A stretch of DNA of 64,000 bases from assembly GCA_963814875.1 (NCBI GenBank), contig CAWFFJ010000016.1:85003-149002 (forward strand), in the 5' to 3' direction. Of this stretch, positions 51,382-56,720 are shown in pieces. A program made the position numbers and the translations under genes. The notes beneath the pieces are model-generated. The model made no database searches, was not told where the DNA came from, and was given only the letters and a program-made list of their open reading frames with translations. Positions within the stretch are counted from its first letter, which is position 1; each line of letters opens with the position of its first letter. Origin of the DNA: an uncultured Acidobacteriota bacterium. GTDB taxonomy: Bacteria > Acidobacteriota > Thermoanaerobaculia > Thermoanaerobaculales > Sulfomarinibacteraceae.

Positions 51382-52494
51382 ATGACGGACATCGACGAGC
51401 TCCGGCTTTTCGATTCGCGGCTCGAGCCTGTCGCCGCGAAGGTTCTCGCGGGCGTGCGGCTCGACCGCGAGGACGGCCTGATCCTGGCGACCTCAGACGA
51501 CCTGCTCGGCATCGGACGGCTCGCGAACCTCATCCGCGAGCGGCTCCACGGCGACGTCACCTACTACAACATCAACCGGCACCTCAACCCGACCAATGTG
51601 TGCGTCGCCTCGTGCAAGCTGTGCGCGTTCTATGTTCCTTTCCGCGATCGCGACCGCGGCTGGACGTGGTCGGTGGACGAGGCGGTGCGGGTCGCCGAGC
51701 GCGACCTCGACGAGTCGGTCAGCGAGCTGCACATCGTCGGCGGCCTCCATCCGAAGCTCCGGATCGAGTACTACGAGGAGCTCTTCATCGCGCTCAAGGC
51801 GCGCTTCCCGTGGGTCCACCTCAAGGCGCTCACGATGGTTGAGCTTGACTTCCTCGCCTCGCTCGGCCGGACCACCGTCGAGGAGGTTGTCGCGCGGCTC
51901 AAAGCGGCCGGACTCGGTTCGTGTCCGGGAGGCGGCGCCGAGATCTTCGCCGAGCGCGTCCGGCGGGAGATCTGCGACCACAAGACCGACGGCGCTCGCT
52001 GGCTCGAGGTCGCACGCACAGTCCACCAGGCCGGGCTGAAGTCGAACTGCACCATGCTCTACGGTCACGTCGAGCGGCCCGAGGAGCGCGTCGACCACCT
52101 GATCGCCCTGCGCACCCTGCAGGACGAGACCGGCGGTTTTCAGTGCTTCATCCCGCTCGCCTTCCACCCCGCCAACACGGCGCTCGACGACCTGCCGCCC
52201 ACCGGCGGCCGTCTCGACCTGCAGACCATCGCCATGGCCCGGCTGCTGCTCGACAACGTGCCCCACATCAAGGCCTACTGGATCATGCTCGGGACCAAGA
52301 CCGCGCAGGTGGCGCAGCACTTCGGCGCCAACGACCTCGACGGCACGGTGATCGACGAGCGCATCACGTGGGCTGCCGGAGGCACCGCGGGCAAGGGCAT
52401 GTCCAGCGACCGCATCGAGCACCTCATCCGCGAGGCGCGCCGCACGCCGGTCCTGCGCGACACCCTCTACCGCCCCCTCACCGCCGTGGCGTAG
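51382..52494 (+). CDS. mqnE: Aminofutalosine synthase (radical SAM)
   Basis: NRHLNPTNVCVASCKLCAF, PGGGAEIF, HIKAYW, GANDLDGT. Confidence 0.88.
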   Translation: MTDIDELRLFDSRLEPVAAKVLAGVRLDREDGLILATSDDLLGIGRLANLIRERLHGDVTYYNINRHLNPTNVCVASCKLCAFYVPFRDRDRGWTWSVDEAVRVAERDLDESVSELHIVGGLHPKLRIEYYEELFIALKARFPWVHLKALTMVELDFLASLGRTTVEEVVARLKAAGLGSCPGGGAEIFAERVRREICDHKTDGARWLEVARTVHQAGLKSNCTMLYGHVERPEERVDHLIALRTLQDETGGFQCFIPLAFHPANTALDDLPPTGGRLDLQTIAMARLLLDNVPHIKAYWIMLGTKTAQVAQHFGANDLDGTVIDERITWAAGGTAGKGMSSDRIEHLIREARRTPVLRDTLYRPLTAVA

Positions 52495-52501
52495 GACATA
52501 C

Positions 52502-52526
52502 AAACCACAGAGGCACGGAGACTCAG
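52502..52526 (+). repeat. Octamer tract after the mqnE stop (left boundary of module)
   Basis: AAACCACAGAGGCACGGAGACTCAG. Confidence 0.65.
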
Positions 52527-52614
52527 CGCGGGCGCCGCCCGCAGCCCAAGAGCGCTCCAGGGGCGGGCCTGAGAGCCGGTGCTGCCGGCTGTGAACCCGA
52601 CGCATCGGGCGCCC

Positions 52615-53022
52615 GAATCCGGGGGACTGGCGGCAGGCAGCCGGCGGCGGGGTCGGGATCGGCATTCCGGCCGGCAACGCCGTGGCCTCCCGACTCCGGC
52701 TCCCCGCGCCCTGCCGCCCGCAGCCTGATCCCGGTCTCGAACGGTGGAACGGGAGTAGCTGGGCCGACCGGGTGTGGGTGGTGGGCGGAATCCGGGTTCG
52801 GGCGGCGGGCCGCAGGCAGCAGGTGGCGGGGTCGGGTTCGGCATTTGGGTCGGAAACGCCGCGGCCTCCCGACCCCGGCTCCCCGCGCCCTGCCGCCCGC
52901 AGCCTGATCCCGGACCCGAGCGCTAGGGAGCGGAGCAGCTGGGCCGACCCGCAAGGGGTCTGGGGCCGAATCCGGGGGGTCGGGCAGCCGGCCGCAGGCA
53001 GCCGGCGGCAGGGTTGGGATCG
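52615..53022. repeat. About 2.3 tandem copies of a ~179-bp unit, each a long imperfect hairpin
   Basis: Core 52684-52734 equals 52863-52913 with one mismatch. Units begin GAATCCGGG at 52615, 52788 and 52968. Confidence 0.85.
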
Positions 53023-53103
53023 AGGTCCCGCGGGTGGCCGGGCTGTCTGGACGGAGAGTGTGCTGGCTCAGCTGGAGTGAGTAGGCGACCGGCAGTCGGC
53101 TGT

Positions 53104-55082
53104 GTCGAGTAGCCGGGGGAGGTTGCCCTCCCCCAGCTCTCACAGAACCGGACTTGTGGACCTCACATCCGGCTCTTCAGGTTGGTATCTCGAGGCCAGC
53201 CAGGAAGGGCTGGCTCGGGGCCGTCGGTCCGGCCGTCTGGCTCTTGAGAGACTTCACGAGGCTGTACAAACGGGCGTGAAACCACGCATTCGGGTACGCC
53301 CGCGTCATGCCAGCGTGATTGCTCTTGTACCAGGTGCCGCGGTCGCACCATGCGCACCGCGCTGCCGTCCGGACCGTCACACCGCGCTTGACGAGATGGC
53401 GGAAGAGATAGCGGGGCCGCTTCCTCTGGCGCACGACGATGGCACGCAGCCGTCGCCGGGTGTGCGCGTCGAGATTGCCGAAGCTGCGCTGAGCTGCGAG
53501 GGTGCACAGCCGGAAATGGCCGTACCAACCCTCCAGGTACTCGTTGATGCGCTCGATGCAGACCTTGAGCGGACGACCGAGGGTCCGGGGCGTCAGCTCC
53601 CGGATCTTCGCGTCGATCCGCTTTCGGCTGCGTCTGGATAGAAAGACCTCGATCGAGCCGTCAGTCCCGCGATGCAGGCTGAAGCCCAAGAAGTGGAGGT
53701 CCTCCGGTCGGGTGACAGCGCTCTTGTCATCATTCACCCGCAGGCGCAAGCGCCTGGTAATGAATCCGATCAGGTTCGCCATCACCCGCTCCCCGGCACG
53801 CTTCGAGCCCACGAAGACATTGAAGTCATCCGCGTATCGCACGAAACGCAGACCCCGTCGCTGAAGCTCCCAGTCGAGCTCGTCCAAGACGATGTTCGAC
53901 AGGAGCGGCGACAGCGGCCCACCCTGGGGTGTCCCCTCGTCCGAGGACACCCGGGTACCGTCTGGCATCACGACCTTCGCCTTCAGCATCCGGTGGATGA
54001 GCCGCAGGATCATCGGGTCTTTGACCCTCTGGCCCACTCGGGCCAGCAGACGTTGGTGGTGGACTCTGTCGAAGAACTTCGACAGATCGACGCTCACCAC
54101 CGTCGTCAATCCCGCGGCGACACACTCCTTCGCCTCCGCGATGGCCGTCGCTGCTCCGCGGTGCGGACGGAATCCGTGACTGCTCCGGTGGAAGGTCGGC
54201 TCGAACAGCGGCATCAGCACCTGATGCACCGCCTGTTGCACCCACCTGTCCACGACGTTTGGTATGCCGAGGCCGCGCTGGCCTCCGCCAGGCTTGGGTA
54301 TCCAAACCCGCCGCACATCGCCCGGTTCATACCGGCCCTCGAGCAGATCTCGGCGTAGTCGAGGCAGCAGTCGGTGTGACGCCGACACCACCTCGTCTAC
54401 GCTCTTCCCGTCCACACCGCCCGCGCCCTTCTTGCGCGCGACGTGGAGGAGCGCCCTCACCAAGTTCTGCGGGGACGCTACCTCCTCCAGCAGCTCCGAG
54501 GCTGCCGTGGTGGTGGAACCGGTCGCGGTCCTTGTGCTCGCCGTTTGCAGCAGAAACTCCCGTCCCTCGGGTCCGCCCGAGCTCTGGTCCTCCCCGCCCC
54601 CTTCCGGGCTGTCGGCGAATGCGAGACACAGTTGGCGTGGCTCCACACTTCTCAACCTGTCACCCCCTTTGCTCCGCCGGCGTTACCCGGCTTCATCGCT
54701 CGTATGGGGTGATCCGACTTCTCCACCAGCATCGTCCCCACATCTCTGCGGGACCTACCGCTCTCCGCGGACTGATGGAGATCTCCCAGGGTAAGGCCAC
54801 GAGACTTCCCGCCGCTCCCGCTCCCAATACCGTCCTGCCTCGACTGGATACCGGGCGTCGCGTTCCTTGGCACGCTCACCCAGACAGGCCGGCCTGCTCC
54901 GGAGTTCACTCTCGTTCGGTGCTGCGGTTCGTTACGAGCTTCCATCCCACACCCCCTCACGGGTACGGTCTCCGCCGGATCGCTCCAACTCGGACTGGTG
55001 CAGTTGCTCCTCACGTTCGATTCCCTCCAGTAGGGGCTCTCTTGGGGACTCTCACCCCCGTCTCGCGCCATGCCTGGCGCAC
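53104..55082 (-). mobile_element. Complete group II intron, class C-like
   Basis: 5' end GTGCGCCAGGCATGGCGC; domain V GAGCCGGATGTGAGGTCCACAAGTCCGGTTC; domain VI ending CTACTCGAC; internal RT ORF. Confidence 0.92.
53177..54655 (-). CDS. ltrA: Group II intron reverse transcriptase/maturase, no endonuclease domain
   Basis: GVDG, IPKPGGGQRGLGIP, GFRP, DLSKFFD, GTPQGGPLSPLLSNI, RYADD, FLGF; domain X. Confidence 0.95.
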   Translation of the reverse strand: MRSVEPRQLCLAFADSPEGGGEDQSSGGPEGREFLLQTASTRTATGSTTTAASELLEEVASPQNLVRALLHVARKKGAGGVDGKSVDEVVSASHRLLPRLRRDLLEGRYEPGDVRRVWIPKPGGGQRGLGIPNVVDRWVQQAVHQVLMPLFEPTFHRSSHGFRPHRGAATAIAEAKECVAAGLTTVVSVDLSKFFDRVHHQRLLARVGQRVKDPMILRLIHRMLKAKVVMPDGTRVSSDEGTPQGGPLSPLLSNIVLDELDWELQRRGLRFVRYADDFNVFVGSKRAGERVMANLIGFITRRLRLRVNDDKSAVTRPEDLHFLGFSLHRGTDGSIEVFLSRRSRKRIDAKIRELTPRTLGRPLKVCIERINEYLEGWYGHFRLCTLAAQRSFGNLDAHTRRRLRAIVVRQRKRPRYLFRHLVKRGVTVRTAARCAWCDRGTWYKSNHAGMTRAYPNAWFHARLYSLVKSLKSQTAGPTAPSQPFLAGLEIPT

Positions 55083-55156
55083 CAAGGGCAGGTTCGCTTC
55101 GCTCACGGCCTGCGGCCGCCCTTGACAGCCGACTGCCGGCCGCCTTGGGGGCAGGT

Positions 55157-55555
55157 ATGAGCCAGCACACTCCCCCGTCCAGCCAGCCACGAACCTCCCA
55201 CCGCAGTCTGCCTCGGGGCCGGGCCAAGCTGCTCGCGCTCTCAGTCGCCGTAGAGCTTGCCGCGACCCTCGCCGAGCTGTCATTGCGTCGCGGGCTCTCA
55301 CATCTGAGAGACCACCTCGTACGGGCAGCCGACAACACCGCGCTGCGGCTGTCAGAGGCGAGCGGGCGGACGCTGGGCAACCGGTACCAGCATCTCGAGG
55401 CCGCCTATGCAGAGAACCAGGAAGTGCAAAGCGATCTCGTCCTGATGCGAGCTCGCGGGGTCGAGATCCCCGCAGCGGTCCTCCATCACGCAGATCGGTT
55501 GGGTGGTCTGATCTACGGGCTGCTGCGCGCAGAGCTGCGGGATGCAGGCAGGTGA
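55157..55555 (+). CDS. Four-helix-bundle protein (23S rRNA IVP / Avd-like family)
   Basis: L.A...A.EL...LRDHLVRAADNTALRLSEASGR...RYQHLEAAYAENQEV...L...DRLGGLIYGL pattern. Confidence 0.75.
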   Translation: MSQHTPPSSQPRTSHRSLPRGRAKLLALSVAVELAATLAELSLRRGLSHLRDHLVRAADNTALRLSEASGRTLGNRYQHLEAAYAENQEVQSDLVLMRARGVEIPAAVLHHADRLGGLIYGLLRAELRDAGR

Positions 55556-55576
55556 GGGCCACTACCCAGGTGATGG

Positions 55577-55796
55577 CTTGGTGTCTTGGTGGTTCAAGAC
55601 GCGGTATCCACTGAACAGCCTTGTACTTCCGAGTGCTTACTCCTCGGAATGTCGCCACACCGGAGGGACTTCTGACGCGGGAGTAGCACAGAGAGACACA
55701 GAGGATCTTGCGTGCAGTGAGCTTGCCGAGCCGGGAGCTCGGCGAGCTCACTGCAGACGAGATCTGTGCGCCTCTGTGCCTCCGTGTCTCTGTGGT
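55577..55796. repeat. Octamer tracts at the right boundary of the module
   Basis: CTTGGTGTCTTGGTGGTTC (55577-55595); AGCACAGAGAGACACAGAGG (~55685); CTCTGTGCCTCCGTGTCTCTGTGGT ending at 55796. Confidence 0.7.
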
Positions 55797-55806
55797 ATTC
55801 CCCCTG

Positions 55807-56301
55807 TCAGCCTTCGGGATTGGGAACCGGGAGTTCGGCCTGCTGGGCTTTGCCGAGAACCAGGTCGAGCCCCGACACGAGCCACGGCGTCAGCCGCGAG
55901 TCCCGGCACACCGCCGCGGCACCGGGCGAGAATCGCGAGGCCGTCACGATCAGCACGGCGAGCAGAAGCGCGGCCGCGACTCCCGCGAGGGTCGCCCCGA
56001 GGAGACGGTTCAGCCATCCGAGGTGCAGCGCCTGGAGCGTGTTCTCGAATCCCCAGCCCGCAGCCCAGGCGAGCAGCGTGCAGAGCACGAGCGGGAGCAG
56101 GCGGCCAAGCACGGCGGCAAGCCAACCCGGGCCGATGATCGTGTCGAGCTGGGCCGCAATGTCCTCGCCGGCAACCACCGCGAGCCACAGCCCGGCCACT
56201 CCCCCGCCGATACCGAGCACGAGCCGTACCGCGCCACGCCAGAATCCAGCCAGGGTGACCCCGGCCCACACGACCACCAGAGCCCAGTCGAGGAGCGTCA
56301 T
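55807..56301 (-). CDS. cvpA: CvpA family membrane protein
   Basis: MTLLDW...GFWRG...LGWLNRLLGATLA...SRLTP. Confidence 0.85.
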   Translation of the reverse strand: MTLLDWALVVVWAGVTLAGFWRGAVRLVLGIGGGVAGLWLAVVAGEDIAAQLDTIIGPGWLAAVLGRLLPLVLCTLLAWAAGWGFENTLQALHLGWLNRLLGATLAGVAAALLLAVLIVTASRFSPGAAAVCRDSRLTPWLVSGLDLVLGKAQQAELPVPNPEG

Positions 56302-56720
56302 GGCAGCAGCCGGACCGTGAGGCGCAAGAAGTCCGCCTCGGTGAGGATCCCGAGCAGCTCGCGCGAAGGACCGACCACCGGCAGGCACCCATACTTGTTC
56401 TTCATCAGAATGCGCGCTGCCTGTGGGATCGGGAAATCCGGCGTGACGGTGACCACGTCCCGGTGCATGAGCTCCTTGACCGGCACTGTCGCGAACACGC
56501 GGCGCTGCTCGCCGGGGTCGACCTCGGCGAAGATCGAAAACGAGGCAGCAAGAAGGTCGCGGTGAGTGAGCAAGCCGACCAGAACACCGTCGCACACCAC
56601 CGGGAGGTGTCGGATCCTGCCCCGCTCCATACAACGCTCGGCGTGGGCGAGGGTCTCGTCCTCCGTGAGGGTCACGAGCTCGGTCGACATCAACTCCCGC
56701 ACCTTCATTCGGCGCGGCAT
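56298..56720 (-). CDS. CBS-pair protein
   Basis: IRHLPVV...VGLLT.RD; GCLPVV..LGILTEAD. Confidence 0.9.
   Translation of the reverse strand: MPRRMKVRELMSTELVTLTEDETLAHAERCMERGRIRHLPVVCDGVLVGLLTHRDLLAASFSIFAEVDPGEQRRVFATVPVKELMHRDVVTVTPDFPIPQAARILMKNKYGCLPVVGPSRELLGILTEADFLRLTVRLLP

Follow-up and report, generated by a model that had tools for sequence, protein, structure and literature searches.

A lineage-restricted intergenic cassette of Thermoanaerobaculia couples a four-helix-bundle gene to a covarying hairpin over its start codon

Intervening sequences (IVSs) with an open reading frame (ORF) are inserted in the 23S rRNA genes of bacteria such as Coxiella and Leptospira. In the account given in PMC4990558, the complementary borders of such an IVS form a stem, RNase III cleaves the transcript, and the S23p ORF lies in the sense orientation. 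The same account regards IVSs as selfish elements that move by an unknown mechanism, and treats how they arise and move as a question open since the early 1990s. ORFs of the 23S_rRNA_IVP type are also reported, within rRNA insertions, in a paper on rRNA genes of the candidate phyla radiation (CPR). Here we describe a locus in a 64,000-nucleotide stretch of DNA (hereafter the window) from an uncultured Acidobacteriota bacterium of the class Thermoanaerobaculia (assembly GCA_963814875.1, contig CAWFFJ010000016.1, positions 85,003 to 149,002 of the forward strand). Between two convergent genes, window positions 52502-55796 hold a small four-helix-bundle gene, a large hairpin that covers its start codon, tandem repeats, octamer arms and a group II intron. 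The region is best explained as one copy of a multi-copy intergenic cassette that is restricted to a lineage within one class of Acidobacteria. ORF-bearing 23S rRNA IVSs are its closest known system; both have complementary borders, an ORF in the sense orientation and a protein of the same superfamily. The source genome (G000) is a 4.38-Mb assembly of 42 contigs, and the studied copy sits on contig C16. We compared it with 41 related genomes, among them two sister species (G001 and G002) and a member of another genus (G007).

When the intron is removed, positions 53053-53103 join 55083-55175 to form a bipartite palindrome with a core of ~145 nt. The inner stem is 28 bp long and consists of a 21-nt arm pair (95%) and a 7-bp apex (CAAGGGC/GCCCTTG). 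The outer stem is 18 bp long (94%); the start codon together with the first six codons of the gene makes up its right arm. The inner stem ends at 55145 and the ORF starts at 55157, 11 nt farther 3′, just as the first-pass annotation had described for a palindrome with a 28-bp stem. Across copies the inner helix measures 26-28 bp; its apex (GTCAAGGG/CCCTTGAC; GUCAAGGG/CCCUUGAC) and its base are invariant, and its middle covaries freely. A consensus fold of 18 intron-less loci from five genomes contains 53 pairs, of which 18 show changes on both sides, compared with 6.1 ± 1.6 in column shuffles (0/500). In controls with slid partners, 0-9 pairs were changed on both sides. It is therefore evident that the pairing of the palindrome exceeds chance.

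The same order of parts is found at distant homologous loci in five further genomes, where the protein shares 32-43% identity. These loci open at the 5′ side with the first codons in reverse complement, followed by ~10 nt that have (G)TA[GA] at their end. The left arm comes next and leads to GT[CA]AAGGG, then to a loop that carries one or two mini-hairpins, and then to the complementary core; after the right arm, a spacer of ~12 G-rich nt precedes the ATG. The apex motif GT[CA]AAGGG occurs 50-75 nt 5′ of the expected start at 20 of 25 distant loci and in none of 25 downstream flanks, so that the predicted enrichment of hairpins upstream of homologues is borne out. Upstream of the left arm, 15 of 20 distant loci carry an exact complement, at least 8 nt long, to the 17-nt start-codon window; among control windows, 3 of 280 do so. 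This complement tracks at least four different N-terminal sequences, and G-U pairs are present in the outer helix. Loops of the cUUCGg type in the sense orientation were seen at 6 of the 20 distant loci.

We further built a covariance model from the inner hairpin alone, with zero coding sequence, and it matches 25 of the 41 related genomes. Hairpin and gene are both present in 23 genomes, the hairpin only in 2, the gene only in none, and neither in 16; since the 41 genomes are mutual kin, this tally counts as co-occurrence and not as a statistical test. Every gene-bearing genome thus holds the hairpin, and a lack of co-occurrence, which would have spoken against the first-pass proposal, was not seen at the level of genomes. 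Within G000, 8 loci have the motif pair, 7 of them copies of the module formed by hairpin and gene, and so do 4 further copies split by the intron. The hairpin has no Rfam match above the gathering score, and the sub-threshold matches are microRNA-precursor look-alikes. In a sample of 301 genomes from the phylum, the exact hairpin pattern was found in 17 genomes and a reversed control in 12, which we do not count as an excess. None of the 16 pattern loci outside G000 in this sample is followed by an ORF of the family, so the unit is not evidenced beyond the Thermoanaerobaculia relatives. These results support hairpin and gene as a real conserved unit. The proposal of a structure plus a putative binding protein is supported as to the linkage of these two parts (20/25 loci; 23/23 genomes) and fails for the 179-nt repeat unit, which is outside the conserved core.

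A near-invariant (G)TA[GA] lies at the 5′ foot of the inner stem (window positions 53081-53084, with an equivalent in 38 hairpins). At four of five loci in genome G012, it is the end of a mini-ORF of six codons, whose start mirrors the ATG of the gene itself. This foot might halt ribosomes from upstream as a stop codon, or it might act as a tetranucleotide recognition signal. TTGACA in the arm was also considered as a -35 box, which is unsupported, as a sigma-70 scan of an intron-less copy gave no sites.

The features of the region are as follows.
52504-52526, plus strand: outer left arm, a tandem octamer tract of ACCAC and CAGAG-type units, which pairs with 55774-55796; this terminus is common to ~20 copies
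52527-52628, plus strand: leader of the cassette, a small GCGGGC...GCCCGC hairpin and the sequence that follows it, retained in ORF-less derivatives (alignment of 24 left ends, BLAST map)
52629-53022, plus strand: 2.2 tandem copies of a 179-nt repeat, each copy an imperfect inverted repeat, added at the level of the genus
53053-53070, plus strand: left arm of the outer helix, complementary to the start-codon region, conserved and covarying
53081-53103, plus strand: GTAG foot and left arm of the inner helix, ending at the intron insertion point
53104-55082, minus strand: group II intron of 1979 nt, with the reverse transcriptase (RT)/maturase ORF at 53177-54655, domains D1-D4 at 54797-54966 and D5/D6 at 53104-53177
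55083-55145, plus strand: apex (CAAGGGC), then a loop of 28 nt that contains a mini-hairpin, then the right arm of the inner helix
55146-55156, plus strand: 11-nt G-rich Shine-Dalgarno-like spacer in an internal loop, a layout that is the same in all clades
55157-55555, plus strand: four-helix-bundle gene of 132 codons, whose first 6 codons (55158-55175) are the right arm of the outer helix
55565-55598, plus strand: small hairpin resembling a terminator, which leads into an octamer tract of the CCAAGA type (55576-55593); the short cassette form ends here on the right, and locus L015 has an equivalent site
55599-55681, plus strand: spacer (tail2) that follows the cassette in some copies and also occurs alone
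~55682-55796, no strand assigned: separate gene-less octamer hairpin with a left tract at 55686-55704, 28-nt arms within 55704-55764 and a right tract at 55771-55796

The outer octamer arms (52504-52526 and 55774-55796) are 87% complementary across 23 nt, and the right tract of the gene-less hairpin is thus also the partner of the outer left arm of the cassette. All features that the first-pass annotation listed are present at the coordinates given there, and its estimate of ~1.3 kb between the flanking genes after removal of the intron agrees with the 1333 nt obtained here (3312 - 1979). The inverted octamer tracts that it placed on the right side do exist; they are two distinct things, the CCAAGA-type tract at 55576-55593 and the gene-less hairpin at ~55682-55796. 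The flanking genes, which it called mqnE and cvpA, are convergent as it described. The upstream one, which ends at 52494, is shown by profile search as a radical-SAM gene of the CofH/MqnC type and no more narrowly than that. The downstream one (55807-56302, minus strand) matched no Pfam or NCBIfam model at the thresholds used, which leaves the name cvpA without a match. Its product looks like a multi-pass membrane protein, and it neighbours the radical-SAM gene in G001 and G007 too.

The ORF is a real gene under purifying selection: dN/dS is 0.134 at a dS of 0.44 among the nine full copies in G000, 0.162 among the copies in G002 and 0.217 in G021. An AlphaFold2 model of the protein based on 34 homologues has a pLDDT of 86.3 and four helices (residues 20-39, 48-69, 76-99 and 106-131). 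In Foldseek searches, the best folds in the Protein Data Bank (PDB) were 2gsc and 2rld (TMt 0.71-0.74; E 2e-3 to 7e-3, which is weak), both structural-genomics members of the protein family. Next came chains of Avd from diversity-generating retroelements (DGRs), namely 8ub7_B, 8ub8_C and 4dwl_D (TM 0.56-0.76). A sequence search of the PDB with a profile of the protein gave no hits. Judged by its predicted fold and not by hidden Markov model threshold, the protein appears to be a divergent member of the IVS-protein/Avd superfamily. A database search returned 361 homologues, mostly on short contigs, some of them annotated as 'four helix bundle protein'; for a few close homologues PF05635 is among the precomputed hits, and named records assign the clade to uncultured Thermoanaerobaculia. 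The two canonical TIGR02436 genes of G000 have other short tandem arrays directly upstream, and the palindrome is absent from them. To our knowledge, the IVS-protein/Avd family is large and has no known function outside DGRs. A family protein from Xanthomonas is described as a pentamer in PMC4990558.

The cassette is repeated in its own genome. The ORF gives 20 tblastn matches in G000 at 16 loci, which comprise nine full open frames (80-98% identity), five disrupted or truncated copies and two small fragments. The left 602 nt give 51 matches. According to a BLAST map, ~18 ORF-less derivatives keep the left leader and the right end without palindrome and gene, and the end points of their deletions vary. 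Module copies are dispersed across at least 12 contigs. Across the related genomes, the number of protein matches ranges from 0 to 47, with 26 in G001 and 18 in G002. At least six contig ends of G000 lie inside cassette copies (C11:1, C14:55604, C13:8-56, C16:1-1143, C1:1 and C10:17), several of them at the palindrome; the cassette breaks the assembly, and the copy counts are thus lower bounds. At G000:C1:1-3138, the palindrome extends to head-to-head whole ORFs that flank the intron, one of them with a stop codon and a frameshift.

Left ends of the cassette start with ACCAC followed by one to three octamer units, and the short form terminates in the CCAAGA-type tract. Some copies, including that in the window, extend through a spacer of 85-95 nt into a separate gene-less octamer hairpin. 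In seven of nine copies, a long open frame on the same strand stops -37 to +13 nt from the left end. Octamer tracts of at least two units number 81 on the plus strand and 83 on the minus strand of G000, and form 99 nearest inverted pairs within 6 kb, 70 of which are less than 400 bp apart. The octamer repeats are thus not specific to the module; they bracket ~70 other short elements and make up a genome-wide foldback family. One pair encloses the sole GxxExxY (TIGR04256) gene of G000. Both Xer-like tyrosine recombinase genes of G000 are followed ~30-60 nt past the stop codon by a gene-less octamer hairpin (L167, G000:C34:54822-54971; L168, G000:C15:270938-271058). The terminal-inverted-repeat-like octamer arms and the internally deleted derivatives brought to mind a transposon of the insertion sequence (IS) or miniature inverted-repeat (MITE) type, a candidate we rejected since the cassette shows neither target-site duplication nor transposase.

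We then examined the sites of the cassette in the sister species. A search for an unoccupied form of the junction between the two flanking genes, which had been suggested as a check, found two states. In G001 the junction holds a gene-less hairpin of ~190 nt, whose octamer arms are of the CAAAG type and whose interior is unrelated, and in G007 the two flanking genes abut. At two other module sites of G000, both G001 and G002 have gene-less hairpins, and arm types, interiors and junction bases differ. Seven module sites of G002 were examined, and their G000 counterparts were resolved at four. Two of the seven have an orthologous module copy in G000 (on C14 and C22). At the C22 site (L145, G000:C22:273900-282500), ~7 kb separate the flank-side octamer arm from the module; in G002 the module abuts the flank. 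This insert includes the Gabija genes GajA and GajB, a gene of the FGE-sulfatase type and a sequence that matches NACHT weakly. Another G002 module site corresponds in G000 to nested arms around 6.7 kb with genes for DarT, DarG, a TIR protein and a NACHT/WD40 protein (L144, G000:C15:151500-158700). These arms are of the CAGAG and CCAAGA types (50 nt at 80% and 55 nt at 73%), and the outer ones are apparently the same in G002, where they enclose the module. At one further G002 site the G000 counterpart is an unrelated 4.3-kb gene without arms. These sites indicate that the octamer arms persist while the enclosed cargo changes.

In a tree of the coding sequences, copies from G000 and G002 interleave, and the C22 copy groups with its G002 ortholog with a support of 0.999. 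The window copy is sister to the C11 copy (0.992), followed by the C14 copy, whose flanks are orthologous to those of a G002 copy. Given this interleaving of the two species, several copy lineages predate the split of G000 and G002. The window copy, placed beside C11 and C14, arose recently by copying within the genome and occupies an armed site that is older.

The intron has the ribozyme domains of a group II intron (RF02001, 74.2 bits; RF00029, 43.2 bits), and its ORF encodes an RT/maturase of the group II type (TIGR04416, 350.7 bits) with RVT_1 and GIIM domains. Within a D1 loop, CAAGG at intron position 214 pairs with CCTTG at the end of the exon, which makes up the pairing of exon- and intron-binding sites (EBS1-IBS1); EBS1 is single and of 5 nt, and a candidate EBS2 (GCAGG) was found by eye only. 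Four copies, each of 1979 nt and 99.95-100% identical, share a common position antisense to the gene, and their ends are fixed at 53104 and 55082 by these copies and by intron-less copies that cross the junction. Uninvaded hairpins in G000 retain the intron target sequence. The intron was not found in G001 (89% complete), G002 (79%) or G007 (98%). It is a recent secondary parasite of the hairpin, with the antisense strand of the inner stem as its homing target, in agreement with the parasitism inferred at first pass. The further idea that its RT acts on the module found no link, given that the intron was not found in G001 and G002 despite their 26 and 18 gene matches. A different group II intron of ~1.85 kb is present in four copies in G021 (~99% identical; L100, L102-L104), lying 90-200 nt from fragments of the four-helix-bundle gene family at three of the four loci, with flanks rich in other repeats.

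The tandem array at 52629-53022 has a period of 179 nt, 2.2 copies and 82% matches, and a 13-mer recurs at 52534, 52713 and 52892. Its presence agrees with the ~2.3 copies of a hairpin unit described earlier; the folding of this unit has no support from covariation. Compensatory change was seen at one of 29 predicted pairs among 26 units, and the minimum free energy (MFE) z-scores of the unit, -1.6 and -1.8, are within two standard deviations of shuffled sequences. We thus rejected the 179-nt unit as a structured RNA. It is found at all 8 loci from the same genus and at none of 31 distant loci, with traces of 43-106 nt in two other genera, and it is thus neither part of the conserved module nor enriched upstream of homologues. 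Two repeat units differ at 19 of 131 positions, 5 of them at A; since the differences lack an adenine bias, the units are not a pair of template and variable repeats (TR/VR).

On the observed anatomy, conservation, covariation, purifying selection, copy history and intron homing, a mechanism can be proposed from sequence. We consider that there is about an even chance that the region is an IVS-like, selfish cassette whose gene would be gated by a hairpin that sequesters the start codon in the sense transcript. A transcript would read in from the co-oriented upstream host gene, and the outer helix would close the gene by pairing the start codon and the first 5-6 codons with their upstream complement, with the Shine-Dalgarno-like spacer held in the internal loop. 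By analogy with rRNA IVSs, the gate might be opened when RNase III cleaves the long inner duplex; alternatively, a protein, possibly the four-helix-bundle protein itself, might open it at the invariant apex. Both openers are speculative. The unit rides between its tandem-octamer arms, and cargo is exchanged at a fixed site, presumably by an enzyme about which we can only speculate. A role in sense RNA is favored by two constant features, namely that the first codons are always the end point of the outer helix and that the internal loop always contains the Shine-Dalgarno-like spacer. The G-U pairs of the outer helix and the sense-strand cUUCGg loops (6 of 20 distant loci) point the same way.

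Several observations weigh against such a gated, IVS-like cassette. The protein scores below the curated cut-offs of both family models (PF05635, 18 bits vs 33.8; TIGR02436, 21.2 bits vs 24). No target-site duplication is visible at the cassette ends, and no transposase is encoded within the cassette, the only ORF being that of the four-helix bundle. Junction sequences at the same site differ between species, so that simple insertion is not demonstrated. Among the inner stems of 38 hairpins, which are related and non-independent sequences, A-C mismatches outnumber G-U pairs (24 vs 3), and in 34 of the 38 the more stable fold is that of the antisense strand. This asymmetry fits a structure of antisense RNA or single-stranded DNA (ssDNA) better than a helix in sense mRNA, and the intron also uses the antisense strand. 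Moreover, the arms of a palindrome can stay complementary through arm-to-arm copying without structural selection. The strand asymmetry and the start-codon pairing are accounted for jointly by no explanation adopted here.

The asymmetry is what most directly suggests that the hairpin acts instead as a folded antisense ssDNA site of recombination or capture, similar to attC, at which a recombinase encoded elsewhere exchanges cargo through the hairpin or the octamer arms. Such a site would also account for inner-helix pairs that switch almost only from one Watson-Crick pair to another (nine changed on both sides, one varying on one side), for the antisense insertion of the intron, for the different cargo within the same arms (the G002 module vs DarT-DarG-TIR-NACHT/WD40 in G000), and for the octamer hairpins that follow both Xer-like recombinase genes. 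PMC1702495 and PMC3001079 report introns of group IIC in attC sites and on the downstream side of inverted repeats. We nevertheless regard this explanation as unlikely. None of the four matches to the integron integrase model TIGR02249 in the genome exceeds the cut-off, the hairpin is tied to the gene rather than to the cassette borders and is lost in ORF-less derivatives, and the cUUCGg loops are on the sense strand. An outer helix on the first codons and a looped Shine-Dalgarno-like spacer suit translation and have no obvious meaning in DNA. In a bolder proposal, hairpin and gene would form the self-regulating core of an undescribed class of foldback cassettes, in which the protein recognizes its own hairpin and promotes copying between armed sites, the same sites also capture DarTG, TIR-NLR and Gabija, and rRNA IVSs are a special case. 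We would not expect this to be correct, and give it a small chance only.

A service to the host is harder to credit, and we take it as rather improbable that the unit is a small regulator that binds nucleic acid, or a factor with a link to defence, of which variable hot spots retain many copies. Such a role is favored by purifying selection, seen on every full copy, together with an old divergence (dS 0.44), by copy lineages older than the split of G000 and G002, and by the two of seven G002 sites that face defence systems in G000 (DarTG with TIR/NLR; GajA/GajB). On the other hand, PADLOC and PHROGs gave no hits for the protein, the number of protein matches per related genome varies between 0 and 47, decay or truncation affects about half of the loci, and presence varies at orthologous sites. 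Such a swing in copy number, together with decay and variable presence, is more typical of a selfish repeat. The fold similarity to Avd chains (TM 0.56-0.76) and the RT inside four copies raise the thought of a retroelement accessory, with the protein and structured repeats forming a ribonucleoprotein with the RT of the intron or another. This is very improbable: the RT inside those copies, the one considered here, is a canonical group II RT/maturase accompanied by intron RNA domains, it was not found in G001 and G002, both rich in gene copies, and the repeat units (5 of 19 differences at A) are not a TR/VR pair. Of these readings, we continue with the gated, IVS-like cassette as the preferred one.

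The cassette shares traits with several known systems. Avd of DGRs works with structured RNA and has the four-helix-bundle fold in common with our protein, whereas the cassette gene occurs in many dispersed copies. A DGR was rejected here, the only RT at the locus being the group II RT/maturase and the repeat differences lacking an adenine bias. Repetitive extragenic palindromic (REP) sequences and REPINs, which are associated with Y1 HUH transposases (RAYTs), are likewise dispersed intergenic hairpins just past genes. REPs carry a 5′ GTAG head, and a GTAG-like tetranucleotide stands at the 5′ foot of the inner stem here. However, the cassette protein is all-helical and not an HUH enzyme, and each hairpin is tied to one gene and not amplified alone; the inverted repeats around the three Y1_Tnp genes of G000 are unrelated, and a REP/RAYT system was rejected. 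Integron attC sites and their IIC-attC introns likewise offer an imperfect palindrome next to a gene, with a conserved core and a variable middle. They are also described with a group II intron in the palindrome, antisense to the gene, and with different cargo at a fixed site. In contrast with attC sites, our cassettes are dispersed rather than arrayed and the hairpin overlaps the start codon. An integron cassette was rejected on the integrase result given above and on the spread of copies over at least 12 contigs.

In the literature found under the family names and IVS, the terms to which our search was limited, no such cassettes outside rRNA are described. What is new is the bipartite hairpin over a start codon, the copy history, the exchange of cargo and the homing of an intron, the last being a case from nature in which a structured repeat is the homing target of a group II intron. 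The borders of the cassette resemble those of an IVS, with 23-nt arms at 87% complementarity and the ORF inside in the sense orientation, and seven of the nine copies are co-oriented with an upstream frame. The insertion site is not a helix of 23S rRNA; the cassette lies between the radical-SAM and membrane-protein genes, and other copies follow protein genes. In contrast with IVSs, the cassette is multi-copy, stands between protein-coding genes and has arms made of octamer arrays, and it adds an internal start-codon hairpin and lineage-specific 179-nt repeats. The cassette thus offers three handles on the question of how IVS elements arise and move: a covarying cis-element physically linked to the gene, old inheritance and recent copying evidenced in one genome, and armed sites whose cargo, including defence systems, differs between sister species.

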